The notes: generated from the sequence alone by a model not told the origin. DNA of 64,000 nucleotides from a virus (IMGVR_UViG_3300014208_000001:229318-293317), one strand, 5' to 3'; positions 4,598 through 47,082 are shown, numbered from the stretch's first letter. Program-made: numbers and translations.

Positions 4598-5136
4598 TCA
4601 GCCCCCAGCGCCGCACGGACGGCGTCCCAGGTGGCGACCTCGCCGGCGTCGATCGCAGCCACGACGGCGTTGTATCGGTCTGCGAGCTGCTGCCGGACCG
4701 CGTCGGTCGCGATCGTGGCGCGGGCCGCGGCGATGCTCTCCAGCGTCGGCTCGACGGTGATAGAGGACCCGTAGGACTGCCACCGGGGGGCCGTCTGAAT
4801 GCCAATGCCCTGTAGCTTGGCCAGCGTCTCCGCCGGCCAGCTCCCCGCGGCTGCGAGCAGGTCCAGTCGCGACTGGAATCGACTGTCCGACCAATCGAGC
4901 CCCGGACCGAGCAGCAGCGCCCGATAGTCCGCCATCGCCGCGGACTGCCCGGCCGCCGCCAGGAGCGTGGCGGAGACCAGCTCCTGTTCCTCATCGGTCA
5001 GTACCTTGGCCGCCGCGGCGAGCGACTGCTGCACGGTGACGCGGCCGGTCTCGATCACCTCCAGCAGACGATCGAGGGCCTGCTGATCGGTCAGGCCGGC
5101 GTATTCGGCGAGCTGCAGGACGTCGCGGTCGGACAT
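4594..5136 (-). CDS. Hypothetical phage protein (island)
   Basis: 180 aa, GC3-rich, 4-nt overlap with the next gene. Confidence 0.7.
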   Translation of the reverse strand: MSDRDVLQLAEYAGLTDQQALDRLLEVIETGRVTVQQSLAAAAKVLTDEEQELVSATLLAAAGQSAAMADYRALLLGPGLDWSDSRFQSRLDLLAAAGSWPAETLAKLQGIGIQTAPRWQSYGSSITVEPTLESIAAARATIATDAVRQQLADRYNAVVAAIDAGEVATWDAVRAALGAE

Positions 5137-10994: not shown

Positions 10995-12710
10995 TCATTT
11001 TTCATATACAAAACAAATTTTCCTACCGCCATATTGCTTTATATATCCATGATGTTCAGCGTATTGTGATTCTACCATATTATTTCTGATAGCTCTGTTA
11101 TACAACGTTTTCTTATGCAATATGCTATTGTCTTGACCAATATACCAATAATCTGATTCAACATAATGGTCAAGTTTGAAATTCAATGCTTTGTATACAG
11201 ATCCAAAATGTCCAACGGTTAAATCTGAATACGCAATAAATGTATCATAATCAATCGAGTCAATCGCTCTCGATATAAACCACGATACTAAATTATATTT
11301 TCTATATGTTGGATTAACACAAATTCGTGATATTTCTATGGCATCATTATATTTATGACTAATATTTTGCCTTATTAACGAGCTAAATAACACACATATT
11401 ACCAATTCATCATTTAAATATGCGCCATATGCAATACCTCCCCTAGCAGCTCCTAAATAGTGATACGCATCAAGTATTTTCTTTGCTTCATCGTACGATA
11501 CTTCTTTTATTATCAATTCATCAAATGAATAATCGGTAGTTGCATTCAATCGTAATTTAGATAATATTCTGTCTTTAATGTTATCGACATTGTTAAATTC
11601 ATGCTCCCACACATATATTAAATGGTCATTTTGATAATACTTATCTAAAAAATTGAATTTTCTTCTATCATTATTACGAACTCTATCTAAAGAATGCCAG
11701 TAATCACCTTGTACTTCAATTAATAGATTATAATCTTTATAATATTTCTCGATCATACAATCGAATGAATAAAATCCTCGTAATGTCTCTTTTGATTCTT
11801 TGATAAATTTTATATTCAATGATTGTAATAAATCATATAGTAACTGCTGTGGGCGACTAACATTATCTCTTTGTGTTAGTCTCTTATTTGCTATGTGAAC
11901 TGCATATTCATCATCATTGAATTTATCTTTATTAGACTGAATGACTTTATCTCTAAAATTTTGGTTTTGCCATTTAACTATTGATGCATTAGATAATGAA
12001 TCGCTAGATGGCCCTGTCCTAACTATTGGAACAGTATCAAATTTTATTTTAAGATCTGTGCATAAATCAACTATACCTGTTTTAAGCATTCCATATTTCG
12101 ACATGACATATGATATGTTATTATTTTTAATATCATTTTCAAACTCTGCAAAATCAACTTCATGATATTCAGGTAATATATGATTTAAAATATTAGTCGG
12201 TCCTTTGTTGTCTTTTAAATCTATATTAAATTCAATAAGTGATTTTCTTATTCTACTATATGACCATCCAGTATGTTTAGCTATAATATTTATTGATGAT
12301 ATCTGATACGCTCGGTTAAGCCATTTATATTGTTCCCATTTCCACCTTGGTGTTATATTTTGTTTATTTATAGATCTTGATAAATTATTAGATCGTAATT
12401 TTATACCTGATGATTTCATAAAATTGCGCATTACTGAATATGATACGTTATATTTTATAGCTAGTTTAGATATTGGCATACCGTTTGCATATAATTCTGA
12501 TATTTCATCTTTTGGTAAATCATTGATTAATAATCTGCTCTCTGATACAGTCCTTGATTTAATACCATATTTATCAGCATACTGTAATAATAGTACATCT
12601 GATACTTTTAATTCGTCAGCTATTTGTCTCCAACTTTTGCGATTTACGCAATATTCATTTATGAGGAGTTCTTTAGTTATTTTATCATAATTTAGCATGC
12701 CCAAATCCAA
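10995..12710 (-). CDS. HTH repeats + Vsr/DUF559-like endonuclease + C-terminal Mom-like GNAT domain
   Basis: FD...LLIEVQGDYWHSL..ND..K..WEHE nuclease motif; YHYLG..EISRIC..NLVSWFISR..IAYSD..GH.G.VYKA.NF Mom-like motif. Confidence 0.7.
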   Translation of the reverse strand: MDLGMLNYDKITKELLINEYCVNRKSWRQIADELKVSDVLLLQYADKYGIKSRTVSESRLLINDLPKDEISELYANGMPISKLAIKYNVSYSVMRNFMKSSGIKLRSNNLSRSINKQNITPRWKWEQYKWLNRAYQISSINIIAKHTGWSYSRIRKSLIEFNIDLKDNKGPTNILNHILPEYHEVDFAEFENDIKNNNISYVMSKYGMLKTGIVDLCTDLKIKFDTVPIVRTGPSSDSLSNASIVKWQNQNFRDKVIQSNKDKFNDDEYAVHIANKRLTQRDNVSRPQQLLYDLLQSLNIKFIKESKETLRGFYSFDCMIEKYYKDYNLLIEVQGDYWHSLDRVRNNDRRKFNFLDKYYQNDHLIYVWEHEFNNVDNIKDRILSKLRLNATTDYSFDELIIKEVSYDEAKKILDAYHYLGAARGGIAYGAYLNDELVICVLFSSLIRQNISHKYNDAIEISRICVNPTYRKYNLVSWFISRAIDSIDYDTFIAYSDLTVGHFGSVYKALNFKLDHYVESDYWYIGQDNSILHKKTLYNRAIRNNMVESQYAEHHGYIKQYGGRKICFVYEK

Positions 12711-17584: not shown

Positions 17585-17800
17585 TTAAATCCCGTAATTT
17601 ACCCATGTAATGTCTGATTTTGATGCGACAATTTCAACATCGTTATCATCTGCAAAAATTGTCGTCAATCCGCCTATTTCGATAATGTTTTTATTATCAG
17701 AATGTCCAACAATGACACCAGTAATACCTTTATTATAACAAAATTCAGCTACATTATTGGCTGCTTTTTTAAATTTAATAATGCACCCTGATTCAATCAT
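17585..17800 (-). CDS. Small hypothetical protein
   Basis: MIESGC start coupled to the upstream GT stop. Confidence 0.45.
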   Translation of the reverse strand: MIESGCIIKFKKAANNVAEFCYNKGITGVIVGHSDNKNIIEIGGLTTIFADDNDVEIVASKSDITWVNYGI

Positions 17801-19691
17801 TTTTGGTAGCTTTCGAAATCTGTTCGTTGTACTTACCAGATAATTGTTTATATTGGGCATTAAGTCTTATATCCATTGGCATACCATATAATTTAGCTTC
17901 GATTGCTTTATTTGCTGTATGACATTCACCCCATCCATCAGTCCTAGAATGCCATAAATGGACCAGATCAAATTCTCTACGTTCTAACCATTTAGAATTC
18001 TTCGATAATCTATTGTAAAATTCAGTATCTTCACATCCATATCCAACAAAATTTTCATTAAAAGCGCCAATTTTCCAATACGTTCTTATTTTACAAGCAA
18101 GTGACCCACCTTCATAATATCCAACAACTCTCTCACATAAAATCCGTTCATCAACAATACTGGTATCATATACAGTTTTAGCAGATTCATTACACGTATA
18201 GATAACAGTTTTACCCAAATGGCATGCTTCATACTCATTTAATATGTTAAAAACAGTTGACGCATAATTTCTTTGAACTATAGTATCAGCGTCATGCAAT
18301 ATAACAGAATCAGATGTTACTAATGATACTCCTTTATTGAAAGCTTTAGATTTATTAAAATGGGTATTTTCATGAACTAAACAATACGTGATTGGCATCA
18401 ATTCTTCAACATTAATATGTGTGCCATTATCGTGTTCAGAAATAACAATTTCAATATTTGGAAATGCTTGAGCACGTATGTTGTTTATAACTGATTTTAT
18501 AGCTTCTCCACGATCTATATTTCTAACAGGAATGACATACGATATTTTAGGCACCACAGCTTTGTAAGAACATTCAACATATTCAGAAACACGGTTTTTG
18601 TGCACTTCTTTTGCATGTTTAAGATGTGAAGATTTATCATCGATTATGGTTTTTTCTTTATGTATCACAAAATATTTATTCGAATTTAGTAAATCAAAAT
18701 ACCCTTTTTGTTGTAACCCCATTTCATATATGCGAGTTGACCAATCAACATGCTCCATACCATACATACCATACTCTTCATTAAAATATCCGCATTCTTT
18801 AATGCATTTATTTGTAAATGCTAGAACAGCACCATGTGGTTTTTCATCTGTTTTTAGATGAATGATACCATTTATATCAACTTGTAAACCTACCTCAGCA
18901 CCATATACACCTTCCTGCCTATAAATATAATGGTTAAATCCAGATCTCTTCATATGATCAAAATAGAAAGAATCCCATCCATCTTTTATTATTTCAACAT
19001 CATCATTTAATAGCATACCATATTTAAATCTGCTTAAACAATTTAATAATCTGTTTGAATTACCAGCTATACCCAATCGTTCATTATTGCGTATGATTAT
19101 AAATTTATGTTGATAAATATCTAGTAAATATTGATAATATGATAATAGTTCTTGATCATCGCTGTTATCATCACTAATGAAAATTGTTGTTTTGCGTAAA
19201 TCTGTGTATCTAACGATTGATTCTATTAATCTTTTAAATGATTCTGCTCTGTTATATGACAATATGCCAATACCTATATTATTACTAATAGCATAATCGC
19301 ATTTTGCTATGTTTTGTTTTAGTAGATCTGTCGCATCGACATTTATTCTTCTTCCTATTGGTGGTTTTATAATTTTTGGCGCTTTATTGACTATATTTTG
19401 GATACGTTTAGCTTGAATTTGTGCTCGTTGCTTTTGAGAGGCTTGAGTATTGATATGTTTTGGTTGTGGTTGTTTTTGTTGATTTATTCTTGCCACTAAT
19501 ACTGTATTTTGCTTTTGCGGTATAATAACAGTTTCATTAACAGATTGAATTTTGGTTATATATCCTCTGGCACAATATCTATCAAAAAAATCATTTAGAT
19601 GTTTTTTCTCTCTACTTTTTATTTGTATTGTTTTGCCATCTGGCCCAGGCAAATAAACTGTGTGATTATTGTTGTTGATGTATTCTGGCAT
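17793..19691 (-). CDS. Double GT2-domain glycosyltransferase with a Q/N/K/P-rich N-terminal extension
   Basis: Domain 1: ILSYNR..SDDNS..LLNDD..YGMEHVDW; domain 2: VIPVRN..FNKSKAFN..LHDAD..GYGCEDTEF. Confidence 0.85.
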   Translation of the reverse strand: MPEYINNNNHTVYLPGPDGKTIQIKSREKKHLNDFFDRYCARGYITKIQSVNETVIIPQKQNTVLVARINQQKQPQPKHINTQASQKQRAQIQAKRIQNIVNKAPKIIKPPIGRRINVDATDLLKQNIAKCDYAISNNIGIGILSYNRAESFKRLIESIVRYTDLRKTTIFISDDNSDDQELLSYYQYLLDIYQHKFIIIRNNERLGIAGNSNRLLNCLSRFKYGMLLNDDVEIIKDGWDSFYFDHMKRSGFNHYIYRQEGVYGAEVGLQVDINGIIHLKTDEKPHGAVLAFTNKCIKECGYFNEEYGMYGMEHVDWSTRIYEMGLQQKGYFDLLNSNKYFVIHKEKTIIDDKSSHLKHAKEVHKNRVSEYVECSYKAVVPKISYVIPVRNIDRGEAIKSVINNIRAQAFPNIEIVISEHDNGTHINVEELMPITYCLVHENTHFNKSKAFNKGVSLVTSDSVILHDADTIVQRNYASTVFNILNEYEACHLGKTVIYTCNESAKTVYDTSIVDERILCERVVGYYEGGSLACKIRTYWKIGAFNENFVGYGCEDTEFYNRLSKNSKWLERREFDLVHLWHSRTDGWGECHTANKAIEAKLYGMPMDIRLNAQYKQLSGKYNEQISKATKND

Positions 19692-25061: not shown

Positions 25062-25592
25062 TTATCTACTTTGTTCTTGCTTCTTAAAACCAGCAAGAGA
25101 TCTTAAATTATCGCATTTCATTTTTAACGCTTCGATTTTATACCACAATTTTCCAACATTCTTCTGTAATATCATATATTGGAATTCTAACTTATTTATA
25201 TTATCATCCTTTTCAACTAACCGCTCAATGACTTTTTCGGTCAATTTTGTATTATCTGCTTTAGCCTGATCGATAATAGCTTGATATAATCTGCCACGTT
25301 TAGCTTTAATTTTACGTTCTGCTATAGCCACATTCATTTTAAGCTCTGAATATATCGCACCATAAAATGCAAATATAGATGGTATATCTTCTAATTGATT
25401 TTCTATTTCTTCATATATAATATCTAAATCATTAAGCATATTAATTGTGATTTTAGTACCATTTTCAAGATTAATATTAAAAATTATAGCTTCAGAATCT
25501 AATATAGCAGCCGATTCTTCATTAATCCATTTTGGTCTGTCCATTTTATTTCCTATAAATTTTAAATTCTCGCCATGCTTTCCATTTACCAA
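25062..25592 (-). CDS. UvsY-like recombination mediator
   Basis: Helical protein with AL.MK..NLR C-terminus, directly upstream of the SSB. Confidence 0.55.
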   Translation of the reverse strand: MVNGKHGENLKFIGNKMDRPKWINEESAAILDSEAIIFNINLENGTKITINMLNDLDIIYEEIENQLEDIPSIFAFYGAIYSELKMNVAIAERKIKAKRGRLYQAIIDQAKADNTKLTEKVIERLVEKDDNINKLEFQYMILQKNVGKLWYKIEALKMKCDNLRSLAGFKKQEQSR

Positions 25593-26727
25593 TACTTACT
25601 TTAACAGGAAATATTATATCACCTTCTAAAATCCCATCAAATGGCCGCATCATAATATCTTTAGCAATCTTAATAGTTGTCTTAATCTCATTAACATCAT
25701 TATGACACATTATTGGAATAGAATCATGAATTTCAGTAATCAATCTATCGCCAAATACATCATATAATCTTGGCAATATAGCGTGCATAGCATGTGCTGT
25801 TGATCCCTGCATAGCACTATTAATTAATGATTTACTATTCCTTGCTTCTGATGCTTTAAACACACGCCCAAGTATAGATTTAACGTCATTGCCAGCATTT
25901 ATACTATCCCACATAGTATTAATCCACACACCGAGATTCTTATAAATATCAAACACTGGACTATTATCTAAAATGCCATTAATCGATCTTAACATAAATA
26001 TTTTAGTTTCTGATCGTGATAATTTATCATCATCGTCATTGTCTAAATTAAAAACATCCATTAAATATGTGTATGGATCAGATTCAAAAAATGAAGACTC
26101 GAGCACTTTATCATTTGATAGAATGGATGCCATTCTAAAATCAGCAGATAACCAGTCTAATGCAACAATGATATCAGTATCGTTGGATGATACTGCTCTA
26201 ATATTATCATCAACAATAGCGCCTTGAACATTAAAACCAGAGCATTTACTTCTACCAGTAAATGTATTATTAGACCATTTAGTTGACATATGTGTATAAT
26301 GCGATAAAACACCATTAGTTTCAAATGCTTTATAAACTCTAGCAGCTTTAGCCAATACATTTTGATATATTGCGGGTTCAGAACATTTATTTAACTTATC
26401 TTTTATCGCTTTCTTATCTCCATCAAATGTCCCATCGGTATCGAATAAATATATATGACAATCATATATATTTGTATGATTTACTGATTCTAAAATCGGA
26501 AATGCATAATAGTGTGATTTCAAATCATTAAATATAATTGTATTATTATGATCTATAATACTAATGAATAGTTCAGTCAATTCTTCTATTTTTTTATTGA
26601 TATCTTTAATTAATTTGTTAGCGCCATGTCTATATAAGTCAAAATATTTATCTTTACCATTATATCTTATACCAATTGTTCGTGGTTTATTTTTGTCAAA
26701 TATTGTTATAACATATAAATTACTCAC
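25546..26727 (-). CDS. Short divergent family A DNA polymerase
   Basis: TGR, NVQ, motif A DWLSADFR, motif B RSETKIFMLRSING, N..MQG..AH, motif C IHDS. Confidence 0.75.
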   Translation of the reverse strand: MSNLYVITIFDKNKPRTIGIRYNGKDKYFDLYRHGANKLIKDINKKIEELTELFISIIDHNNTIIFNDLKSHYYAFPILESVNHTNIYDCHIYLFDTDGTFDGDKKAIKDKLNKCSEPAIYQNVLAKAARVYKAFETNGVLSHYTHMSTKWSNNTFTGRSKCSGFNVQGAIVDDNIRAVSSNDTDIIVALDWLSADFRMASILSNDKVLESSFFESDPYTYLMDVFNLDNDDDDKLSRSETKIFMLRSINGILDNSPVFDIYKNLGVWINTMWDSINAGNDVKSILGRVFKASEARNSKSLINSAMQGSTAHAMHAILPRLYDVFGDRLITEIHDSIPIMCHNDVNEIKTTIKIAKDIMMRPFDGILEGDIIFPVKVSIGKWKAWREFKIYRK

Positions 26728-32001: not shown

Positions 32002-32209
32002 CTTTTATAATCATAAAGTAAATCGAAATAATGTGCAATTACACGGTTTAAAATTATATTATAATCAAAATAATTCATCTAGCGGCGGTGATGTCAATAA
32101 CCAACCATCATCAAATGGGTTACCATCTAATATTCCAAATAATCCACGACATAGACAATATATGGGTTTGCAAAATAGAGGGTGTTCAATACTACCACCA
32201 TCATTATGA
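31994..32209 (+). CDS. Small Asn-rich low-complexity protein
   Basis: 71 aa, overlaps the upstream stop. Confidence 0.4.
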   Translation: MNNFYNHKVNRNNVQLHGLKLYYNQNNSSSGGDVNNQPSSNGLPSNIPNNPRHRQYMGLQNRGCSILPPSL

Positions 32210-32647
32210 TTTTTGGTTATTCAACCATTTTTCTATCATTGATAATATTCTATCTTTTTCTCTATACGCTGCATTAGGTGAATCGAACAAAAACGCTTGC
32301 GGCATCCAATACCCCTCATCATTCATATAATAATATTCACCAGTATCCTCACTGCGAGCAATATTTTCAATTTTATATGGTTCTACAGAAAACGTACCAG
32401 TTATCATCATCATAATAGATTGAAAATCAACAGAATGTAATTTCGGTATTAATCTGCCTTTAAATAAGCTGATATCCCACATATTAACCATCTTACGATC
32501 ATATATTACTTTCGGGTGATGATCGAGTACCCATTTGGTATCTTCATCCTGTTCAAAAGCCTGTGCACCAGGATGAACTATTGATAACCAATAAGGTTCA
32601 TCATTTATTTTATACTTGCCAAGTTGAAGAACTGATGTAATTTTCAT
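32204..32647 (-). CDS. Hypothetical protein
   Basis: 147 aa ORF. Confidence 0.55.
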   Translation of the reverse strand: MKITSVLQLGKYKINDEPYWLSIVHPGAQAFEQDEDTKWVLDHHPKVIYDRKMVNMWDISLFKGRLIPKLHSVDFQSIMMMITGTFSVEPYKIENIARSEDTGEYYYMNDEGYWMPQAFLFDSPNAAYREKDRILSMIEKWLNNQKS

Positions 32648-32704
32648 TCTATTTGCCCCACATGTTGGAAAAGTACAACAATGGTGCTACAACATCATTT
32701 ATGG

Positions 32705-32926
32705 TCACCCGCAGATAACTCTATTCGTCGCGTGGCTGACAATGTTTTCAGCTATAGCTTTATCTATGTTAACTGCAACTGGTGTCCATGTACCATTATC
32801 TTTAACTTCTATTTGGTGTAAACCACCATTAATTTGTTGCCCAGCCATCGGAACAACTCTACAATTAGTGGCTCCAGCCGCCTTCACACGACTAACAACA
32901 TAATTAACATCAACAACATCAGACAT
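32705..32926 (-). CDS. Hypothetical protein
   Basis: 73 aa with GGAG RBS. Confidence 0.55.
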   Translation of the reverse strand: MSDVVDVNYVVSRVKAAGATNCRVVPMAGQQINGGLHQIEVKDNGTWTPVAVNIDKAIAENIVSHATNRVICG

Positions 32927-32943: not shown

Positions 32944-33273
32944 TTAACGAAGCCCGCCATTTAAATACTTTTCAACTGTGCTATATAATTCATCAAAACA
33001 TTCGCATTCATGTAATTTAATAATAGCAATAATACGATCAAAATACGCCTGGCATCTAATATCATAGTCATCATGAACGAATAATATTATGTTTGGCCCA
33101 CCCAAAACAGCTTCATCAAGTTTGATTTTAAATTCTGACGTATCAATAGTAAAATACATATACTCATTATATATAATAACATTATCAGTAATCCATGTGT
33201 CATTTATATAATTAATTATTGCTGATAAAATATCACACGGTTTTTCTACTATTCTGAAATCATCAGGTATCAT
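32944..33273 (-). CDS. Hypothetical protein
   Basis: 109 aa ORF in the operon. Confidence 0.45.
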   Translation of the reverse strand: MIPDDFRIVEKPCDILSAIINYINDTWITDNVIIYNEYMYFTIDTSEFKIKLDEAVLGGPNIILFVHDDYDIRCQAYFDRIIAIIKLHECECFDELYSTVEKYLNGGLR

Positions 33274-33571
33274 TAATATTGCTAACTATTTCCATAGACG
33301 TTATAACATAATATGGATCAGATACTCCTAAATCATTATAAAATTCTTCTAATGAAGTAACGCAATACAAAGGATCTTGCTGAGAATAACCCATACTTAT
33401 CTTCATGATATCGCCCTCATATATATCAACATTGTGTTTATCTTTAATATTAGAACATTGTTGGATAACACAATTAGTAACTGATATTAGCACACCCTTA
33501 TAAATAGTAATATTATCGCTAGGTTCAACATAACATTTATGATCTTTATGATACACTCTAAATTTTTTCAT
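33263..33571 (-). CDS. YopX-family protein
   Basis: KFRVY, IQQCSNIKDKHNVDIYEGDI, EIVSNI. Confidence 0.75.
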   Translation of the reverse strand: MKKFRVYHKDHKCYVEPSDNITIYKGVLISVTNCVIQQCSNIKDKHNVDIYEGDIMKISMGYSQQDPLYCVTSLEEFYNDLGVSDPYYVITSMEIVSNINDT

Positions 33572-33870
33572 AGTATAACCCTTGAATATGGCTCGGTTTC
33601 ATTAGGATTATTAATAAAAGTTATCAATTCATTTTCATAAGTTTCATTATATAATGAAACTTTTATTGTCCTAACAAAATATCCATTAATATTAGATATA
33701 TTTATATCATTATTATCATCTAATATTAATCTAAATTCTAACTCGTTCACATAAAACGTGTAACCATCAAAATAATAATCTGGCTCAGATATTATTCGTA
33801 TATTATCGACTTTACTTGTTATACCCTTCAAAATAATCGTCAAAATATCAGATGGGTATCTACGTGTCAT
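33568..33870 (-). CDS. Hypothetical protein
   Basis: 100 aa, coupled. Confidence 0.45.
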   Translation of the reverse strand: MTRRYPSDILTIILKGITSKVDNIRIISEPDYYFDGYTFYVNELEFRLILDDNNDINISNINGYFVRTIKVSLYNETYENELITFINNPNETEPYSRVIL

Positions 33871-34534
33871 ACTTTGCTCTTAATGCATCGAGTGCTAATG
33901 CAAATACTTGTTCTTTAGTTGTGCAATTTGGGTATTTTGAACCAAGACCATGTTTTAAAGCCACAATACACGATTCGTTCATATTTTGAAATACGCGTTC
34001 AAAATTGCAATCACCAAATCCAACAGGTTTAGCACCAAAACCAGTTTTATAATCATGTGCATATATAATACGAGTCCATCTGTTTAATAAAATCCAATAT
34101 TTAGTAATATGATCATGTTTCGATACTTTCAAAACATCGGCTGGATCATAAAGCACATGATATCTAACTTTATATAATAATTGGATAAAACTTACAAATT
34201 CATTTGATTGTTTAAATTTAATCATAGGGCGCATATTCAACCCTACTATTTTATTCTTCATTTCAGCTAATATTTGATGATCACATTCATAATTATTAAA
34301 ACACGCATATTTAGCACCAATAAATGATGCTTTATTAATAGTACTATCAGAAAATTCATCAGACACAAACGCATTGACTGTGATATTATTGTTTTTGCAT
34401 ATACTCCGTATAGCATGCAATTGAGTATCGGTATATATGTCATTTATAATGACATTATCTATACCATAATAAGCAAGCATATTAATAGCTGTGGTGTAAT
34501 TATCAGAAACCTCATCTAAATGAACAGAAATCAT
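33860..34534 (-). CDS. Xylose-isomerase-like TIM barrel (sugar phosphate isomerase/epimerase or AP endonuclease 2 superfamily)
   Basis: LYDPAD and IYAHD...PVGFGD.NF resemble the family C-terminal D..N and H.KD...G.G..D motifs. Confidence 0.55.
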   Translation of the reverse strand: MISVHLDEVSDNYTTAINMLAYYGIDNVIINDIYTDTQLHAIRSICKNNNITVNAFVSDEFSDSTINKASFIGAKYACFNNYECDHQILAEMKNKIVGLNMRPMIKFKQSNEFVSFIQLLYKVRYHVLYDPADVLKVSKHDHITKYWILLNRWTRIIYAHDYKTGFGAKPVGFGDCNFERVFQNMNESCIVALKHGLGSKYPNCTTKEQVFALALDALRAKYDT

Positions 34535-35658
34535 ACTTCAACCACATGGTTTAGCTGCGGACCGGTCCCGATAAGAGTCACTGGTATACTAACCAATTGC
34601 TCAATCATATCAATAAAATTCAAAATTTTATCTGATAATTGACCATAATCATTTGTGCCATAACATTTCCAATCAATATAATTAGCAAAATTTAATGCTA
34701 TTCTAGTAGCACCATTAACAGTAACAGCTTCAACCAATTGCTGTTTTGAAAATGTTGCAACTCTCCTAATTCGCCCTGTAACTGTCGTTTTTTCAGTTAT
34801 TGATAAGTCAGCTGGCACTCCTGCTGCTTTAGCAACATCTGACCACTCTATTTCATGCTGATCAGAATACCAATCGCCTGAATACCCAACAGTCGTATCT
34901 CCTTCAACAACATTACCAACTCTAATCGGATATGGTCTAATAACTAGATAAATATCTCCAACAGAATAAAACGGTATACCGATATCGGCCATCGCTTGAG
35001 TTGATATTGTCTGGCGGCTAGTACAAAATGGGTATGAATGACCATGATGGATATCTAATGAATATCCTTGACTGCCTTCATGAAGTATAGTCTTTTTTCC
35101 TATAACTTCATTTAATGCCATATGCATTGGTGTGTCAGCTTCTAATTCATTATCTAAATTAAATCTAGTATAATCAGTATATGCTGCTAATTCACTATAA
35201 TCTCTTGCAAGTTTAAGATCTTGCTTACGTGCTACTTTATTAGCTAAGAATGTGCCGCACCCTTGCATTGTGCTAGCTAAGTATTTAGTACCTAAAGCTT
35301 CTTGCTCTTTGTGTTCTTGCGTGATAACACCGGCACGTTGGTGTATAACGCATTTGTCTACTTCACATTCTATAACTTCTTTATACATTTGGTCTAGAGT
35401 AAATGCTGCCGATGACCCAACAACTAACCATGGGTTATATTCACCACCACTCCATTTTTTCAAAATTGCTGATGTTGGTAGTGCTTTAGCTATAAATTTA
35501 TCGCCATTTTCATTTACAGCTGTATGGCCAGCGTTAGCCATATTTGTGGTTGTTATAATTTCTGGTTTATATTTATTGGCTAAATATGTTGCGATAGCTC
35601 CTTTACCAGTTGATCCAAATTGGCCATCGAGTACTATGTTAAACAGTCCCTGTCTCAT
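34531..35658 (-). CDS. purZ: 2-amino-2'-deoxyadenylosuccinate synthetase (PurZ)
   Basis: DGQFGSTGKG (Ser where PurA has Asp), NAGHT, EGSQGYSL..H...YPFCTSR, RPYPIRV (PurA KAY.TRV), TTVT...RRV, LNFANY (PurA TKLD). Confidence 0.88.
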   Translation of the reverse strand: MRQGLFNIVLDGQFGSTGKGAIATYLANKYKPEIITTTNMANAGHTAVNENGDKFIAKALPTSAILKKWSGGEYNPWLVVGSSAAFTLDQMYKEVIECEVDKCVIHQRAGVITQEHKEQEALGTKYLASTMQGCGTFLANKVARKQDLKLARDYSELAAYTDYTRFNLDNELEADTPMHMALNEVIGKKTILHEGSQGYSLDIHHGHSYPFCTSRQTISTQAMADIGIPFYSVGDIYLVIRPYPIRVGNVVEGDTTVGYSGDWYSDQHEIEWSDVAKAAGVPADLSITEKTTVTGRIRRVATFSKQQLVEAVTVNGATRIALNFANYIDWKCYGTNDYGQLSDKILNFIDMIEQLVSIPVTLIGTGPQLNHVVEV

Positions 35659-36029
35659 TGTGATCCTTCTATTGTGTAACCATCAGAAAGCCAATTATCA
35701 ATTTGTGCGTCAGCGTTTGCCGATGCTAAATACGTATCACGATTTAAAGAATTTACCGCATCGTTTACTTTCTGTACCGAAATTTCAACATTAGTTATCT
35801 CATCGTTTTTTGTTATAATGTTTTGAACAGGCACCAAATTTGATTGCTGTAACATTCTTTTTAATGTAATAGCTTTATCAATTGCATGCAATTGATTTGA
35901 TATGATATATAATTCTGATACTAACTGATCTCTATGGGTTTGCAACCATACATCAGATCGAACAAGTAAATCAGCATTTTCACCTATTTGATCAGCAACA
36001 TATAACGACAATAACGCTTTGTTTCTCAC
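35655..36029 (-). CDS. Hypothetical helical protein coupled to purZ
   Basis: ATGA overlap with the purZ start; no HD or MazG motifs. Confidence 0.55.
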   Translation of the reverse strand: MRNKALLSLYVADQIGENADLLVRSDVWLQTHRDQLVSELYIISNQLHAIDKAITLKRMLQQSNLVPVQNIITKNDEITNVEISVQKVNDAVNSLNRDTYLASANADAQIDNWLSDGYTIEGSQ

Positions 36030-36036
36030 AATCGCC

Positions 36037-36711
36037 TCAAAAAGGAAACATAGATTCTTTTGTGATTACTTTAGCTTGCTGAAGACAAACAGCAAATTTT
36101 GATGCGCCAGCACAATTGGTTATATGCTGGAACGATGTAATATTACCACTTATTTTTATTGGATACCCAACTTTTGATCTAACCCGTTCAATATTAACAT
36201 TATGGATATCTGGAGATGCTTTAGATAATTGAATTTTAGTAACATTATCTAATCTTATTAAATTTGGTGTTCTTAATCCGACAAAAGCTGAACACATATC
36301 GTCAAAATTAGTATCTGTTATCGATGTAACTGGTATAACAAATCTGATATCTATCTGATCGCCCAAGTATTCTTTAACAAATTTCATAATTGCGTTGTAT
36401 TCATTTACCGTTTCTAAAACCGATTTATTTGGGGTTAACATAAATTCAAAACCTTCTACGGTCATTGAATCTATTGGTAATCCGCGCAGTTTTGTTAGTC
36501 CATAATTTTCGCCTTTTGGCCAGTCAACTGGTACAATTATTTTATATATTCCTTGTGATCTACCTCTTACTAATAGTGCTTCACGTACTAATTGAGTATG
36601 AACCACCATCGCTGGCAATTTAAATTTAACAGATAATTCAGATGCATCCTTTAATTCATTTAATTGCAGAACATCGATCTCTAATCTTGACACTTTTGAA
36701 TCAAATGACAT
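36037..36711 (-). CDS. Deoxyribose-phosphate aldolase (DeoC)-like TIM barrel
   Basis: VDWPKG resembles V.FP.G, EFML resembles D.V, PIKISGNI resembles .K.SGGI; the Schiff-base Lys position appears to be Arg (LIRLD). Confidence 0.55.
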   Translation of the reverse strand: MSFDSKVSRLEIDVLQLNELKDASELSVKFKLPAMVVHTQLVREALLVRGRSQGIYKIIVPVDWPKGENYGLTKLRGLPIDSMTVEGFEFMLTPNKSVLETVNEYNAIMKFVKEYLGDQIDIRFVIPVTSITDTNFDDMCSAFVGLRTPNLIRLDNVTKIQLSKASPDIHNVNIERVRSKVGYPIKISGNITSFQHITNCAGASKFAVCLQQAKVITKESMFPF

Positions 36712-37099
36712 TATATTTTAAAACCTCAATTACTCGTTGGAAAGCATCGTCTTTATTGTCAGTTATGTACACTGATGGTAATTTATAGAATGCCAACATT
36801 CGTTCTGATTTTTCTTCTTCCAGAATTACGACTGGTATCCCTGACGAATAAGCAACACCAAATTCAAAATGACTTCCTATGCGCGCTGGAAGAACCATTA
36901 ATAAACACGCAGCCGATTTAACACCATTATATTCGTTAACTGCTATCTGTGCCAATGCTTCTTCATCTGTTACATATCCATGTGATGTCCAATCATATGT
37001 GATATGTATACCAGCACTAACAAATTCATCTCGCAATTGTTTAATTCGTTCAACATTATTTAATGATGAAGCGATGTACAATTTCATTTTTACCTCCAA
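36701..37099 (-). CDS. Nucleoside 2'-deoxyribosyltransferase / DNPH1-like N-glycosidase
   Basis: LYIASS, YDWT, GSHFEFGVA..GIPV; probable start 37087 after GGAGG. Confidence 0.8.
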   Translation of the reverse strand: MEVKMKLYIASSLNNVERIKQLRDEFVSAGIHITYDWTSHGYVTDEEALAQIAVNEYNGVKSAACLLMVLPARIGSHFEFGVAYSSGIPVVILEEEKSERMLAFYKLPSVYITDNKDDAFQRVIEVLKYNVI

Positions 37100-37493: not shown

Positions 37494-38486
37494 TTATATT
37501 TGTACACAATGATTATTTAAAATATGATCAATAGCTCCTGCATGATCTAACCTATTAAATTTTTCAACAAATGGCCATTGATTATATGAACTGCAAAATA
37601 CAAATTTCGACCTATCCGCTTCACTCATATTAGCCGCAGCATACTCATAATATTTGGCTTCTTGAGCGAATCTTTGAATTCTCTTTTCTGGCGGAACAGC
37701 AGGATTCACACCATAAAAATGTAATACTCCATTAACTTCACACATATCAACACCAAATATATAAACTTTATCATATGCCATCCATAAAGCAGTCTGCATA
37801 TTAGCATATGTCGTTGATCTACCAATATAAAATCCTTTAATAAGATCGAAACTAAAACCAAATCCTCCAATATTCTTAATTTGTATAGAATTCTCTTTCA
37901 AATGAGAAATGCCAGTACTATTAATAATAGTACCAGAATATGTTTCCCATAAATCTTTATATGCTGTGTATTGTGATGGATCACAAAATGCCCAATGTGT
38001 GGTGGGCCAAATTCTCTGGTCTGGCCTATTTATTGACATAGTATCAATATTATTATATCCACGTAATCTATTTAATTCTACTTCATTTATAGATGGCCCA
38101 TTGGCAATAATAATTAGTATTTTACCTATTCCATATGATTTTATTTTATTAATTTTTCTCTTTGAATCATCTGATATTTCTCTTGTTACATAATGTACTT
38201 TAGCCCCATTAGCTTTTTTAACTACTTTATTAACTACTGTATTACGTGTCGTTTTTTGAGGCTGTTTAACAATATTTCTTTTATTGACTACATTATTATT
38301 TGTTGGTAATACGCCATGCGATTGGACTGATATTATTGGTTGTGGCGTTTGTACTGTATTTGTTCTTGATATTGGTAATACTTGTTTTTGGGCTTGATTT
38401 ATTACAATTTTTACGTTTTTTGATACTTTAGGTGGGTTGACCGTCCTTATTAATTGAACCTGTTGTTTTACCACCACATGTCGCAT
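37494..38486 (-). CDS. DUF115 / Maf-like (MptE-like fold) glycosyltransferase with a disordered N-terminus
   Basis: IIANGPS, MSIN, AFCD, STTY..MQ.A.WM.Y..VYIFGVD. Confidence 0.65.
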   Translation of the reverse strand: MRHVVVKQQVQLIRTVNPPKVSKNVKIVINQAQKQVLPISRTNTVQTPQPIISVQSHGVLPTNNNVVNKRNIVKQPQKTTRNTVVNKVVKKANGAKVHYVTREISDDSKRKINKIKSYGIGKILIIIANGPSINEVELNRLRGYNNIDTMSINRPDQRIWPTTHWAFCDPSQYTAYKDLWETYSGTIINSTGISHLKENSIQIKNIGGFGFSFDLIKGFYIGRSTTYANMQTALWMAYDKVYIFGVDMCEVNGVLHFYGVNPAVPPEKRIQRFAQEAKYYEYAAANMSEADRSKFVFCSSYNQWPFVEKFNRLDHAGAIDHILNNHCVQI

Positions 38487-38524: not shown

Positions 38525-39169
38525 TTATTTAATCTTTAAGTAAGATTTGCATAAATGTTTCGTCTTAACCATACTTGACTCATCATCCGTAGATGATAAT
38601 GATCTGAATTGCCCTTTTTTCCTGTTCCTTTTGTTCAAAATCGAAAAAATACACCTATAGATTGTAGTAGTCAACAAATTAAACACCGGTGCTTTACCTG
38701 GTGTATAAATTAATTTGTTATTTACTAATTTGTTTGCAACTTGAATGAATGCTTCCCCAGCCAATTCTTGGTATTCTTCCTCTGAATTCAACGTAAATTT
38801 TGTTGATATTCCAGCACACATATTATTAATATCAACTAACATATTATTCCAACTATCATTAGTCGGTGCTTCTTTGATAAATCCATCACGATTCACATCA
38901 CCTGCTTCGTATTCAACAACAATCTCACCATCTACAGTTTCAATGAACTTCCCACTAATTAAATGAAATTTTTGAGAACATCTCGGATCTGGATACGTGC
39001 GTCCAGCGGGACCAACAACTGTAGTACCGTCCTTATTTTTCACAACATCACACATTTTTGTGTACAAAACACCCATTTGCCTGTAAGACTCAAACTGCGG
39101 CGTAGACTTGGCAAGTAACCAGTTAAACCATTCTTGTTCAAGCTTTTTAGTGTCGCAGTATTGGGCCAC
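38525..39169 (-). CDS. Sigma factor-like protein (T4 gp55-like late sigma)
   Basis: N-terminal Y.D.K.L; ELAGEAF.Q......Y.P.K..VF..LTT.IYRC resembles sigma region 2. Confidence 0.6.
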   Translation of the reverse strand: MAQYCDTKKLEQEWFNWLLAKSTPQFESYRQMGVLYTKMCDVVKNKDGTTVVGPAGRTYPDPRCSQKFHLISGKFIETVDGEIVVEYEAGDVNRDGFIKEAPTNDSWNNMLVDINNMCAGISTKFTLNSEEEYQELAGEAFIQVANKLVNNKLIYTPGKAPVFNLLTTTIYRCIFSILNKRNRKKGQFRSLSSTDDESSMVKTKHLCKSYLKIK

Positions 39170-39194: not shown

Positions 39195-40715
39195 ATGAGA
39201 CAATTACCAAAGTTGTACTTGCGCGGATCGCTCGCAACCGAAACTATGACAAACATTACGACCGACCAAATGAAGGAAATCACTGAAGCTTACAATAAAG
39301 TTATGAGTTACGAAAGTGTTGCTGTCAAACGATTCACGATGCGATCAGCATTAGGCCAAAAATCAATACGTGGAGATTACAAAGACCCATCTATATGCGA
39401 TCAAGATTTCAATATAGCAATATGGAAAGGCGTAGTAGAATTATTATTACACCATAAATACGAATACGAATGCGCAGCATGCTCATCAAGAACATACAAA
39501 AATAAACGCGGCCTCATAACACCAATCAACAAAAAAGAAAAAATCTGCCCTAATTGCAAATCTGTCAAAATAACAAAAACCGGTAACACCACTTTAACCA
39601 AAAACCACTACATCACATTCGAAGAATACCAAAAATCATATGAACATCTGACAGACGATGATATAGCACCACAATACACAAGTCCAATGATACCAATACA
39701 AATGGATAAAAAATATAATGATCCATATAATGTTATAAATGATGAATCGCAATCAGGTAAATTTTTCGGAACATACGTGTATGGCTACCTAAAGCAGCAA
39801 TTACGCGAAAATAAACGAGTACAAAAGAAAACAATCGAAACAGTAGAAGGTCAAGCAGACCTAATCATAGCACAAGAAATAACGGCCACATTCCAACAAT
39901 TAAATATAGCTCACGACTATATCAAAGAATATAATAAATTTATTATTAAATTAATACAACCATTATTGGCAAAAGTCGAAGCAACATCACGCCTCATACA
40001 ATCATTAGCAAAAGCCCAAAACGCAGGAATATCAATAAACATATTCGACAGAGAAATACACATATTATCACACGCAACAGCTCCAATAATCAGCGGTCAG
40101 ATTATGAAAGGGAAATATATATCTCAAACACAAAACTCTACAAGTATTGATGATAATACACAAATTGTGGATCTACTCAATACAAAAACAGTGAGAGGTC
40201 AAATGATAGAAGAATTGAAACATACAGAAATAATAGAACAAAATGATTTCATAAACAATTTAAGACAAACACTCCCAGAAGGACATTGTAGAGCAGTATT
40301 CGACATTTATCTTGGAGATGGCGAATCATATTCAACATTCGCCGAATCAACAGATGGAATAATTAAAAAATCAACAGTCGCAGAATACTTAGGAATAAAA
40401 CCAAAAATAGTCGAACAACATATCTCAACAATCAAATTAGCCCTATTAGCAACAAGCGACATAGGCACACCAACATCATGCAGAACATCCTTAATAAAAG
40501 AAAAAATCAACATGTCAATCGAAGAATTAAACTTACCAATCAAAATAGTCTCAACATTATTACAAGATAACATCAACACAATTTCTGACTTAATAGAATG
40601 CGACAATGCTTCACTATTAATGATTAATGACATAGAAGAAAACGATATTATACGAATAGACAACGCACTCAAAAAAATCGGCCTGCAACGTAACCCATAC
40701 TATACCAATAATTAA
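39195..40715 (+). CDS. Sigma70-like protein with zinc ribbon insertion and C-terminal RNAP alpha-CTD-like domain
   Basis: Region 2-like DQDFNIAIWKGV; CAAC..CPNC; region 4-like HTH (STVAEYLGIKPKIVEQHISTIK); SIEELNL...I.TI.DL...LL.I...I..AL.KIGL. Confidence 0.6.
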   Translation: MRQLPKLYLRGSLATETMTNITTDQMKEITEAYNKVMSYESVAVKRFTMRSALGQKSIRGDYKDPSICDQDFNIAIWKGVVELLLHHKYEYECAACSSRTYKNKRGLITPINKKEKICPNCKSVKITKTGNTTLTKNHYITFEEYQKSYEHLTDDDIAPQYTSPMIPIQMDKKYNDPYNVINDESQSGKFFGTYVYGYLKQQLRENKRVQKKTIETVEGQADLIIAQEITATFQQLNIAHDYIKEYNKFIIKLIQPLLAKVEATSRLIQSLAKAQNAGISINIFDREIHILSHATAPIISGQIMKGKYISQTQNSTSIDDNTQIVDLLNTKTVRGQMIEELKHTEIIEQNDFINNLRQTLPEGHCRAVFDIYLGDGESYSTFAESTDGIIKKSTVAEYLGIKPKIVEQHISTIKLALLATSDIGTPTSCRTSLIKEKINMSIEELNLPIKIVSTLLQDNINTISDLIECDNASLLMINDIEENDIIRIDNALKKIGLQRNPYYTNN

Positions 40716-45090: not shown

Positions 45091-45574
45091 AATCAGATAT
45101 CATATCAAATTCTTCAACAGATAATTTATCATAATCGCCATCAGAATATTTAAATATAGTATCAATATCAAAAGTTTGGTACCACGTTGGCCATTGCCAT
45201 TTATTAACAAAAATTTTCGAAACAATAGGTGTTCCAATTCTGGAACACCATTCAATACAAACAGCATCGCGATTAACTTCACATTTTATATTCTTGCGTA
45301 AAATAATAATATGAAATAAATTAAGTGGATATACATAATTATATTCAGCAATTCGGTATTGATGCTTTATTATAACATCAAATTTATTATTATGATATTT
45401 ATTAATTATCATATTCAATAAAACAGTATCAATAATATCACATTTTGAATAATATTTGAGGTCACCAGGATTAATAAATTTATTACACACCCCTACGTGC
45501 TTAGTATTCATCTTTTTATAAATAGCACCAAATCCACGTGTGTATAACTCATACTCCATGCATGCCGCTTTCAT
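45044..45574 (-). CDS. Hypothetical protein
   Basis: 176 aa ORF. Confidence 0.45.
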   Translation of the reverse strand: MKAACMEYELYTRGFGAIYKKMNTKHVGVCNKFINPGDLKYYSKCDIIDTVLLNMIINKYHNNKFDVIIKHQYRIAEYNYVYPLNLFHIIILRKNIKCEVNRDAVCIEWCSRIGTPIVSKIFVNKWQWPTWYQTFDIDTIFKYSDGDYDKLSVEEFDMISDCVDRYVERISGVISR

Positions 45575-47082
45575 TTAATATGAAAAATGTACCTATATTT
45601 TTCTGACGTTTTCATTTTTGTAAATTTGTATGTATTAGCGTAAACATTTTCGGTCATAGAATGTTTTATAGCTCTATTATATAACGTTTTCTTATGCATG
45701 ACCCAACCACCATTATTTATATAATAATATGATTCTGTGGTATTACCATCATATAACCAATTAGATGCTTTATAAATTGTGCCAACATGCCCAATAGTAC
45801 TATCAGCAAATGCAACCAAGCATTTCCATTTTTTATTATTTCTAATCCATTTAATCGATTTAGCTATGCACCACGACGCAAAATTCTTCTTCTGGTAATT
45901 AGGATGAATACAAAATCTTTTCAATTCTTTAACTTCATCAGATTTATAACCTAATCTAATAGCTGTTTCATTCCTACTTATTGATCCATATGAAGCGCAC
46001 GCAATCAATATATCATTAATATAAAAACCAATATTTATAGTATGATTAATCGGTCCTATATAATGGTATTTATACATAAATTCATTTATATCACTAGCAT
46101 TTACCAATTTAGCCGTAACATCATTAAAGTCAAAATGTGTAACGTTACTTTTATTTATATCCAGTTCATATTTCAACCTAGTATTTATAACATCCTTACC
46201 ATAAAATTCATATTCATAAAAATATAACATTTTAAATTTAGTATACTTATTAATATATGTAGCTTTAGCTTTATCTGATCTGATAGCTTTTGGTAATGAA
46301 TGCCAATAATCACCTTGTACTTCAATAAGACGGTTATATTTTGGCAAATAACAATCAAATGTCCATGGTCCAACTTTGTATTCATGAATGTATTCAATAT
46401 TTAAATCTTCTAATAATGAATATAGCCATTTTTGAGGTTTAGAAATACTTACCGTACTTGCTCTGATAGTAGCCATTTTATCTCTAAAAACATCATCTTT
46501 CCATAAATCAATAAAATGCTCTTTAGCAATTTTGGACATTTTTTCTCTATAACCAGGTCTATTCCAAAACGATTTCATAAACATTGAATATTCATCAGTT
46601 TTCCTACGATATAATTCTTTCTGTCTCCTATCTAAATTGCCCCATAATGCATCAGCACCAACTTTACCATTTCTAGATAATAATTCTTTATCGACCTTGC
46701 ACATACCACTTTTAACTAATTCAGAAAATGTACTATTGTTAATTCTATTTTTAGCCAATTGTTCATATATATCACGATTATCGTGATATCCTTTTATAGC
46801 AGCACATTTAATACATAATTTATTATTTCTACTACGATATTTAACTTCTCTATCTTCACCACATTGTGTGCATGTTATTTTGATTATAGTATTATTATTT
46901 ATACTAGCATATTTAGCTTTCATACGTTGTGAAATATTTATATTATTTCTTTTCCTGCAACAATCAGAACATAGAACTTCATCATATAATTTTAACTGCT
47001 TATAATAATTAACTGCCGATTTTTCTGATGGTATATTACATTTTGGACATGTGAATTTTTTACGTTTCATTTTATAATCCAC
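45571..47082 (-). CDS. Zinc ribbon + Vsr/DUF559-like endonuclease + Mom-like GNAT domain
   Basis: CPKC/CSDC/CTQC/CIKC; FD...LIEVQGDYWHSL; YHYIG..ELKRFC..NFASW..AFAD..GH.GTIYKASNW. Confidence 0.72.
   Translation of the reverse strand: MDYKMKRKKFTCPKCNIPSEKSAVNYYKQLKLYDEVLCSDCCRKRNNINISQRMKAKYASINNNTIIKITCTQCGEDREVKYRSRNNKLCIKCAAIKGYHDNRDIYEQLAKNRINNSTFSELVKSGMCKVDKELLSRNGKVGADALWGNLDRRQKELYRRKTDEYSMFMKSFWNRPGYREKMSKIAKEHFIDLWKDDVFRDKMATIRASTVSISKPQKWLYSLLEDLNIEYIHEYKVGPWTFDCYLPKYNRLIEVQGDYWHSLPKAIRSDKAKATYINKYTKFKMLYFYEYEFYGKDVINTRLKYELDINKSNVTHFDFNDVTAKLVNASDINEFMYKYHYIGPINHTINIGFYINDILIACASYGSISRNETAIRLGYKSDEVKELKRFCIHPNYQKKNFASWCIAKSIKWIRNNKKWKCLVAFADSTIGHVGTIYKASNWLYDGNTTESYYYINNGGWVMHKKTLYNRAIKHSMTENVYANTYKFTKMKTSEKYRYIFHIK

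Follow-up and report, generated by a model that had tools for sequence, protein, structure and literature searches.

A stretch of 64,000 nucleotides (nt) of the viral record IMGVR_UViG_3300014208_000001, hereafter called the window, carries a block of five minus-strand open reading frames (ORFs), in which a PurZ-type synthetase is accompanied by an NDT-like protein, a TIM barrel of the deoxyribose-phosphate aldolase (DERA, DeoC) fold, a conserved protein of 124 amino acids (aa) and a xylose-isomerase-like TIM barrel (Table 1). PurZ is the enzyme that lets some phages swap adenine for 2-aminoadenine (Z) in their DNA. The block is probably a purine-rewiring module of a jumbo-phage lineage that puts Z into its DNA; the more specific proposal of a module for Z-DNA synthesis in which the NDT-like protein removes adenine is considered evenly balanced. 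The window corresponds to bases 229318-293317 of a single IMG/VR record of 355,825 bp with direct terminal repeats, rated 100% complete by CheckV. A tail-sheath gene just upstream of the window indicates a contractile-tailed phage and backs the name of myovirus used in an earlier note on this DNA. The window represents the replication and recombination region, with a DnaB-like helicase, a UvsX-like recombinase, an SbcC-like nuclease and a second helicase.

The synthetase matches PF00709 (E 9e-33) and phrog_1211, the PHROG holding PurZ (E 4e-56). The signatures on which the earlier note had called the enzyme PurZ and not PurA are all present: GSTGKG (residues 15-20), RPYPIRV (241-247) and LNF (322-324). 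Among the PDB sequences the best match is the PurZ of phage S-2L (7ODX, E 1.7e-39), followed by the short PurA of Pyrococcus (1.5e-37) and the PurZ of phiVC8 (1.5e-33); PurZ0 and the long PurAs match much more weakly (8e-17 at best). In comparisons with phage records, the enzyme shares 42% identity with the PurZ-like protein from Bacillus phage vB_BpsS-140, 32-34% with the PurZ of S-2L, VP5 and SH-Ab 15497, and 26-29% with PurZ0 from Ghobes and Wayne.

The substrate pocket was compared with the residues listed, in phiVC8 numbering, as separating PurZ from PurA in a preprint in which dZ DNA was enriched physically (bioRxiv 10.1101/2025.10.22.683976); the list includes P233, Y244, W252, G256, S273, P144 and I34. 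According to the same source, F295 and Y298 bind the adenine of ATP, F12 and T262 form the 2-amino pocket, and the change of S14 to Asp in phiVC8 PurZ leads to the loss of substrate selectivity. In an alignment with the PurZ of VP5, S-2L and SH-Ab 15497 and with E. coli PurA, the window enzyme keeps eight of the 12 listed residues (F12, S14, P233, Y244, W252, T262, F295 and Y298) and all five of those having a structural explanation, while E. coli PurA differs at all eight. The columns of F12, T262, F295 and Y298 hold F, T, F and Y in the window enzyme versus W, G, K and V in E. coli PurA, and in the S14 column the alignment confirms a Ser in place of the catalytic Asp13 of PurA. The G4 guanine-specificity motif of PurA is likewise replaced, as in PurZ. 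The 150 best representatives from an exhaustive homologue search were examined for this Ser (151 sequences scanned); it is present in every one of the 131 homologues with a detected G-x-x-GKG motif (G-S-x-GKG), and the motif was not found in the other 20.

Two trees were built with E. coli PurA as the root and no archaeal PurA included: a FastTree of 215 sequences and a smaller IQ-TREE quick tree. In both, PurZ0 (Ghobes, Wayne and Hiyaa) splits first, and the window enzyme belongs to a metagenomic clade of 43-46 members with a support of 97-99. In the FastTree, this clade and the clades of the S-2L, VP5 and SH-Ab 15497 PurZ form a 113-row clade (support 98); in the IQ-TREE, the enzyme lies with vB_BpsS-140 in a 69-row clade (support 83), whose sister group, inside a 125-row clade (support 90), is the characterised PurZ. 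The deeper branching order is unstable between the two trees; in both of them the enzyme groups with characterised PurZ, and not with PurZ0 or PurA, in agreement with the earlier assignment. On these residue patterns, we take the protein for a diverged PurZ-branch enzyme with a PurZ-looking substrate pocket.

Some homologues of the synthetase, up to 58% identical, are about double the normal length (P0022, P0023, P0027, P0031, P0039 and P0051, 750-810 aa; P0044, 1197 aa). They match in two stretches around an insert of ~230 aa (P0022, P0023) or ~350-400 aa (P0027, P0031), and the insert of P0022 gives a weak intein-type match. These genes look like intein-bearing purZ genes of related large phages.

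The NDT-like protein has to be set against two recent reports. DmtZ, described by Poubanne et al. in February 2026 for PurZ0 actinophages, is an NDT-family hydrolase specific for dAMP, which also transfers deoxyribose-5-phosphate to Z; it is encoded by 85 of 98 PurZ0 genomes, usually as a fusion with DutZ (PMC12884076). Yang et al. (October 2025) found PF05014 NDTs on experimentally enriched dZ contigs from water samples, one of them with a base exchange with Z that prefers dA (bioRxiv 10.1101/2025.10.22.683976). As a consequence of both papers, the N-glycosidic cleavage of dAMP or base exchange, which the earlier note had offered as a new route to a Z genome, is no longer new, having been published for small phages. 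Neither paper names an aldolase-like or xylose-isomerase-like partner or phages this large, and full-text searches combining PurZ with jumbo or aldolase, or 2-aminoadenine with deoxyribose-phosphate aldolase, gave nothing relevant.

The assignment of the first gene of the block to the NDT/DNPH1 group holds; the gene lies two genes upstream of purZ and its Tyr/Glu catalytic pair is intact. The match of the protein to PF05014 (E 9e-6, 26 bits) is just below the cut-off of 28.8 bits, and one relative reaches 35.5 bits. Its AlphaFold2 (AF2) model has a predicted local distance difference test score (pLDDT) of 92.9, and Foldseek aligned it with the CMP N-glycosidases BcmB and MilB, with DNPH1 and with NDTs at template modelling (TM) scores of 0.61-0.74, the same mixed list of structural matches that DmtZ yields (PMC12884076). 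Across nine homologues sharing 39-66% identity with the NDT-like protein, the residues Y4, N11, W33, H36, G37, E52, P67, G71, H73, E75 and G77 are invariant. Y4 and E75 align with Tyr6 and Glu103 of DmtZ, a pair found essential by mutagenesis (PMC12884076), and probably E52 or N51 corresponds to the third triad position (Asn77 of DmtZ), where the alignment is uncertain. The features common to the NDT-like protein, Ghobes gp53 (DmtZ) and the N-terminal domain of Wayne gp52 are (i) the catalytic Tyr and Glu; (ii) WTxHG; (iii) LPA before the nucleophile; (iv) G..E. No Dut is fused to or adjoins the gene. From fold, catalytic residues and context, we infer that the NDT-like protein may work like DmtZ. 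The protein gave nothing by tblastn against 50,697 phage records and only a match of E 0.64 by phmmer against PDB sequences; for Ghobes DmtZ, a word-based search yielded no homologue besides the query.

The canonical partners of PurZ are absent. The earlier note had seen no HD-domain DatZ, MazZ or full-length DpoZ in the 64 kb, and the search of the complete 355,825-bp genome extended this absence, with no DatZ, MazZ, DUF550/DUF5664 or DpoZ found and neither datZ nor mazZ located elsewhere. The S-2L DatZ and MazZ proteins, phrog_7076 (DatZ), phrog_801 (pyrophosphohydrolase) and the Pfam MazG family PF03819 had no match in the whole genome at E up to 10. When 12 reference proteins (three DatZ, MazZ, DUF5664-DUF550, DUF5664, DutZ, DmtZ-DutZ, DmtZ, VP5 gp25 and two DpoZ) were compared by phmmer with the 2,981 stop-to-stop ORFs of at least 40 aa of the whole genome, a single dUTPase ORF matched. 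PurB was also not found in the complete genome, and the lyase reaction must thus be supplied by the host, which is also the case in known Z phages. The sole PolA-like signal of the genome is a 393-aa ORF with weak similarity to the palm and fingers of family A polymerases (Table 1). At least three ORFs outside the window (genome 299105-305915) make up a split polymerase of the DnaE type (family C), and one of the pieces ends in an intein-like start.

Several other nucleotide enzymes are encoded in the genome. Its only dUTPase (genome 109812-110462, minus strand), ~150 kb from purZ, is 33% identical to E. coli Dut and 27-35% to DutZ, values by which DutZ and ordinary Dut are not separable; its long reading frame has a Cys-rich N-terminal extension of ~85 residues with a CxxC...C...CxxC pattern. 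A Nudix domain fused to a dTMP kinase and a MutT-like Nudix protein are candidates for the dNTP pyrophosphohydrolysis that would replace MazZ or DutZ. The divergent adenosine-deaminase-family protein keeps its HxH, HxxE and DD metal and catalytic motifs. The dUTPase, the Nudix proteins and the adenosine-deaminase-family protein could drive dATP in the direction of dAMP or eliminate adenine. The single HD protein of the genome (186 aa), located outside the window directly after the last DnaE piece, was considered as a substitute for DatZ and rejected; it matches HD domains of YhaM-type nucleases and phrog_5889, not DatZ, and is possibly a nuclease partner of the replicase.

The operon proposed earlier (NDT, DeoC-like, hypothetical, PurZ, TIM barrel) is confirmed as five overlapping or adjacent ORFs arranged head to tail between 33860 and 37099, where three of the junctions are overlaps (11, 4 and 4 nt) and the fourth is a gap of 7 nt; start/stop overlaps of 4-11 nt indicate co-translation. 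The tight packing goes on downstream of the last barrel (ORFs 33568-33870, 33263-33571 and 32944-33273). The gene neighbourhood is conserved: the order 214-aa protein, MptE-like, NDT-like, DERA-like, ~125-aa protein, PurZ, xylose-isomerase-like barrel, 73-aa and 147-aa proteins is kept on four other large phage contigs, namely L006 (a 227-kb IMG/VR contig), L108, L110 and L109, the last of which ends inside purZ. The identities in the syntenic region are 24-59%, with most genes at 31-57% and the TIM barrel at 24-31%; upstream of the NDT gene, all four contigs carry the MptE-like (43-50% identical) and 214-aa (37-46%) orthologues in the same order. The relatives have insertions of unrelated genes at differing points of the block: a methyltransferase, a PhyH dioxygenase, a DUF6948 gene and a reverse-strand ORF. 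Homologues of the DERA-like protein (38-63% identity) occur on contigs up to 183 kb, and all five of the examined contigs with a DERA-like gene also have the NDT gene and purZ. A blastn search of the region against the 50,697 phage records gave no match.

In more distant members of the PurZ clade, other enzymes stand beside purZ. In L123, an adenosine deaminase (L123:3934-5004) above the NCBIfam cut-off overlaps the start of purZ, near NDK, DnaB and DnaE; in L124, a dUTPase and an HAD-family gene lie by purZ in a T4-like context with PolB and gp23. Such a clade-wide pairing with varied adenine- or dNTP-directed enzymes fits the picture of "functional convergence" of Poubanne et al. (PMC12884076), and this recurrence is the best contextual argument for adenine exclusion in these large phages.

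The second gene of the block encodes a barrel without recognisable sequence relatives in the families searched: no match was obtained in Pfam, NCBIfam, PHROGs or the PDB sequence search, its family profile gave only chance matches to PDB sequences, and hhalign to E. coli DeoC, local or global, produced no usable alignment (probability 0.15%). The AF2 model, built with 13 homologues, has eight beta-alpha units (pLDDT 85.8, predicted TM score 0.83), and in the Foldseek search of the PDB all 50 of the matches listed are deoxyribose-phosphate aldolases (TM 0.66-0.79, E down to 2e-10); its Atlas structure gives a TM of 0.76-0.80 to DeoC clusters. The strand motifs PAMVVH, PVDWPKG and PIKISGN correspond to AAICIY, VTNFPHG and GFKPAGG of E. 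coli DERA. In the MAFFT alignment with E. coli DeoC, K201 and K172 are matched by K186 and K159, and the Schiff-base lysine K167 by R153, which is invariant in the 13 homologues. Arginine is unable to form a Schiff base. The term DeoC-like used in the earlier note is thus appropriate for the fold and not for family membership by sequence, and the disposal of deoxyribose-5-phosphate by a simple aldolase, which the note had assumed, becomes doubtful. That the protein is an orthodox aldolase is itself doubtful; either K186 may have taken the place of the missing lysine, or the barrel may use a bound ligand resembling deoxyribose phosphate in a different reaction.

The 124-aa protein has no match among Pfam families, PHROGs, the Atlas or NCBIfam and no detectable relatives outside the module. 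Its orthologues (32-40% identity) lie immediately upstream of purZ in L006, L108 and L109, and in L110 one small reverse-strand ORF separates the two genes. The last protein of the block has no Pfam match of its own, and its Atlas structure reaches a TM of 0.86 to clusters of sugar-phosphate isomerases/epimerases; its orthologues (259-281 aa) match PF01261, that of L108 above the cut-off with 37.4 bits. The window copy is shortened, is 21-26% identical to the orthologues and lacks the Glu of their LEPNLG motif, and the usual Glu/Asp/His/Glu metal site of xylose-isomerase-like barrels was not identified in it. This gene may be decaying in the present genome.

From the observed gene order, folds, catalytic-residue patterns, PurZ signature residues, absence of helpers and conservation of the block, we infer the substrates and the presence of Z in the DNA as follows. 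PurZ would condense dGMP with aspartate, using ATP, and the host PurB and host kinases would complete dZTP. The adenine-exclusion role of DatZ would be taken by the NDT-superfamily protein, cleaving dAMP to adenine and deoxyribose-5-phosphate, as DmtZ does, and perhaps handing deoxyribose-5-phosphate to free Z; phage enzymes of the dUTPase family or the Nudix type would first bring dATP to dAMP. The DERA-fold and xylose-isomerase-like barrels would act on the sugar-phosphate product. Of the Z-genome route with non-canonical partners proposed in the earlier note, the PurZ type, the absence of canonical helpers and the presence of an NDT-like gene in a conserved block have stood; the novelty of the route and the simple disposal by DeoC have not.

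Several findings weigh against this interpretation. The phage is uncultured, and Z in its virion DNA is a prediction from the genes. The replicase is the split family C enzyme, for which no Z selectivity is known, and the DERA-like protein lacks the Schiff-base Lys, as read from the sequence alignment together with the predicted strands. In the case of the NDT-like protein, the BLASTP comparison with Ghobes DmtZ gives E 0.17 and Wayne gives no match; hhalign with Ghobes DmtZ reaches E 8e-4 with a probability of 24% over 57 columns; and the essential Asp12 of DmtZ, the proposed contact to adenine N6, aligns with Asn10, in a column occupied by N, E, H or D in the relatives. The likeness is marginal, and the protein, not demonstrably a DmtZ, would represent a separate, barely related lineage. 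With respect to the synthetase, the NCBIfam PurZ model NF038379 gives 221.3 bits and its cut-off of 300 is not reached, and the archaeal-type PurA model NF003295 scores nearly equally (211.6 bits, cut-off 368). Furthermore, a scan of one genome per prokaryotic species revealed 80 loci with Ser-type homologues having the same signature residues (F12, S14, T262, F295 and Y298), and the flanks of the block are syntenic as well as its core.

The bacterial loci deserve a closer description. About 60 of the 80 belong to metagenome-assembled genomes (MAGs) of gut Clostridia, Bacilli or "Tenericutes" (L017-L060), on contigs up to 430 kb; the others come from Micavibrio-like and other proteobacterial MAGs and from Chondromyces apiculatus DSM 436. 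One Micavibrio MAG has the gene 3 nt behind a tandem-MazG gene and also encodes a canonical PurA. In the proteobacterium UBA6503, the gene is flanked by cmk and a Ham1 ITPase gene, with rpsA following shortly after, and is the sole PurA-family gene found. Both genes branch inside the characterised PurZ clade with a support of 95. The NDT-like, DERA-like and xylose-isomerase-like partners are absent at all 80 loci. Since the Ser14 signature also occurs in bacterial housekeeping contexts, it is no proof of a Z genome by itself, and the confidence in the present reading was lowered; the signature residues may be insufficient to prove dGMP specificity as well. The chromosomal genes matter for anyone calling Z genomes by Ser14 alone.

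These loci are one ground for an explanation without a Z genome, in which the block consists of auxiliary genes of purine salvage: the short Ser-type synthetase would resemble adenylosuccinate synthetase, with ordinary or altered specificity, and boost the supply of adenine nucleotides, and the NDT-like protein and the barrels would recycle deoxynucleotides and sugars of the host. It is supported by the housekeeping neighbourhoods of the bacterial homologues, two of which are the sole PurA-family gene detected in their genomes (G004, G005), by the missed cut-off of the PurZ model at about the score of the archaeal PurA model, and by the Pyrococcus PurA as the second-best solved relative. However, the bacterial genomes concerned are MAGs whose completeness is not established, the exchange of S14 for Asp abolishes selectivity in phiVC8 PurZ, the residues separating dZ-enriched from unmodified contigs are kept here, and the G4 motif of PurA is replaced. 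The varied adenine-directed enzymes recurring by purZ across the clade are also hard to explain by the supply of AMP, and the salvage explanation is considered unlikely.

A distinctly unlikely explanation is synteny without functional coupling, where purZ would work with enzymes of the host or with ones scattered through the phage genome, and the other four genes of the block would be unrelated neighbours whose order persists because the five contigs are close kin. Because the flanks are collinear as well, with the 73-aa and 147-aa genes extending the collinearity past the five-gene block and the 214-aa gene equally syntenic, the block is conserved in one lineage, and shared descent rather than function may explain the order; functional coupling is not thereby proven. 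In addition, the NDT/DERA-like pair was not found beside purZ outside this lineage, and the xylose-isomerase-like copy of the window is shortened and divergent. The overlapping starts and stops nevertheless indicate co-translation, the core genes remain together despite the inserted genes, the NDT gene and purZ accompany the DERA-like gene on all five examined contigs, and the published biochemistry independently ties NDT enzymes to dZ phages. It is very unlikely that the module makes a different or further-modified purine, for which the DERA-like, xylose-isomerase-like and MptE-like proteins would make or transfer a group derived from a sugar phosphate: the barrel does keep phosphate-site-like residues (K159, the SGN loop) and not the aldolase lysine, the MptE-like (pyrophosphokinase/DUF115) gene is always upstream, a methyltransferase or PhyH dioxygenase is inserted in relatives and two Mom-like domains occur in the window, but there is no precedent and no identified donor or acceptor, the MptE-like match is below the threshold, and the inserted genes vary between relatives and hence are not core.

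If the module works in Z-DNA synthesis as proposed, Z-DNA reaches beyond siphoviruses and podoviruses of ~40-80 kb to contractile-tailed phages of 200-360 kb with a Pol III-type enzyme, and adenine exclusion has been solved at least four times: by DatZ, by DutZ/DmtZ, by adenosine deaminase and by the NDT-like/DERA-like set. A further-reaching suggestion, which is tentative and somewhat unlikely, is that jumbo phages with family C replicases possess a Z helper set of their own, composed of a DmtZ-independent N-glycosidase/transferase of the NDT type, a DERA-derived barrel with Arg for Lys and a xylose-isomerase-like barrel; these would form a new enzymatic branch for processing or recycling what the destruction of adenine nucleotides sets free, be it deoxyribose-5-phosphate or a deoxyribosyl intermediate. 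The Arg-bearing DERA-fold protein and the conserved 124-aa partner pose clean biochemical questions and could add enzymes for the production of non-canonical DNA in vitro.

The remaining features of the window are listed in Table 1 together with the block. The 506-aa ORF is divergent from the module. The two ORFs with Mom-like domains are curious in a genome that possibly excludes adenine, the target of Mom being the N6 of adenine. The segment 2001-6000 has a GC content of 0.50-0.54 versus ~0.33 in the rest of the window and holds the minus-strand ORFs 1071-3509, 3506-4597 and 4594-5136; it is possibly a recent acquisition, and an rRNA operon in this stretch was rejected, with no Rfam match. 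The Rfam and tRNA scans of the window found nothing, and the promoter and terminator scan remained at background level and was uninformative on the operon boundaries.

Table 1. Features of the block, its surroundings and the wider genome, and examples of bacterial loci. Positions are those of the window unless the genome or a locus is named.
Feature	Position	Strand	Remarks
NDT-like protein (P0171)	36701-37087 from ATG; to 37099 from TTG	-	128 aa from ATG, 132 aa from TTG; NDT/DNPH1 superfamily
DERA-fold TIM barrel (P0003)	36037-36711	-	224 aa; Schiff-base lysine missing
Conserved 124-aa protein (P0004)	35655-36029	-	no family assignment
PurZ-type succino-amino-deoxyadenylate synthetase homologue (P0001)	34531-35658; genome 263848-264975	-	375 aa
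Xylose-isomerase-like (AP_endonuc_2) TIM barrel (P0005)	33860-34534	-	224 aa
MptE-like/DUF115-like protein	37494-38486	-	330 aa; syntenic upstream gene; PF01973 E 1.7e-4, below cut-off
214-aa protein	38525-39169	-	syntenic upstream gene; no family match
73-aa and 147-aa proteins	32204-32926	-	syntenic downstream genes; orthologues after the TIM-barrel gene in L006, L108, L110
393-aa ORF, weak family A polymerase palm/fingers signal	25546-26727	-	not full-length DpoZ; PF00476 36.2 bits summed over two stretches; phrog_17 E 1.8e-5
Nudix domain fused to dTMP kinase	genome 137000-138100	-	TIGR00041 above cut-off
MutT-like Nudix	genome 91449-91859	-	
Divergent adenosine-deaminase-family gene	genome 81785-82708	+	TIGR01430 124 bits, below cut-off; ~180 kb from purZ
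506-aa ORF	39195-40715	+	C-terminal stretch weakly like the RNA polymerase alpha C-terminal domain, NCBIfam E 6e-6, far below cut-off
632-aa protein, two glycosyltransferase-type regions	17793-19691	-	phrog_2456 E 8.5e-27; phrog_1721 E 1.2e-9
Two large ORFs, HNH/homing-endonuclease-like regions and Mom-like DNA-modification domain	10995-12710; 45571-47082	-	phrog_1384 E 1.5e-15; 1.4e-28
Example bacterial Ser-type loci	L064:5090-7095; L067:5273-7660; L024:5836-7122		

Among the known systems, a close parallel is provided by the DmtZ/DutZ PurZ0 actinophages, which likewise have an NDT-superfamily protein near a PurZ-family synthetase, no DatZ or MazZ, and a dUTPase-family gene in the genome; the catalytic Tyr/Glu, WTxHG and LPA are common to both NDT-type proteins. 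The differences relate to the synthetase (PurZ branch here, PurZ0 there), to the dUTPase (here a separate gene ~150 kb off, whose product resembles E. coli Dut at least as much as DutZ), to the genome and replicase (356 kb with a family C polymerase versus ~45 kb with DpoZ/PrimPol) and to the DERA-like, 124-aa and xylose-isomerase-like partners, which do not occur in those phages. The PurZ-MazZ-DatZ cluster of S-2L, phiVC8/VP5 and SH-Ab 15497 shares a PurZ-branch synthetase, 32-33% identical and with the same dGMP/ATP pocket residues, whereas DatZ (HD/YfbR-like), MazZ/DUF550 and DpoZ are missing here and the neighbours of purZ are wholly different. The dZ-contig NDTs of Yang et al. are also PF05014-family enzymes tied to predicted dZ phages; those were found alongside DatZ and PolA with no direct link to purZ, and nucleosides served as their assay substrates, whereas the present gene lies two genes from purZ, with DatZ and PolA absent. 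With DERA/DeoC (E. coli 1JCL, B. halodurans 6D33), the second protein of the block shares the TIM-barrel fold, the equivalents of K201 and K172 and the motif pattern of beta-2 and beta-3, in contrast to an identity of ~13%, an invariant Arg at the Lys167 position and a Glu at that of Asp102. In comparison with all these systems, the new elements are a PurZ-branch enzyme in contractile-tailed phages of 200-360 kb whose polymerases are of family C, a purZ operon containing an NDT lineage other than that of DmtZ, and, as conserved companions, a lysine-less DERA-fold barrel, the 124-aa protein and the xylose-isomerase-like barrel.

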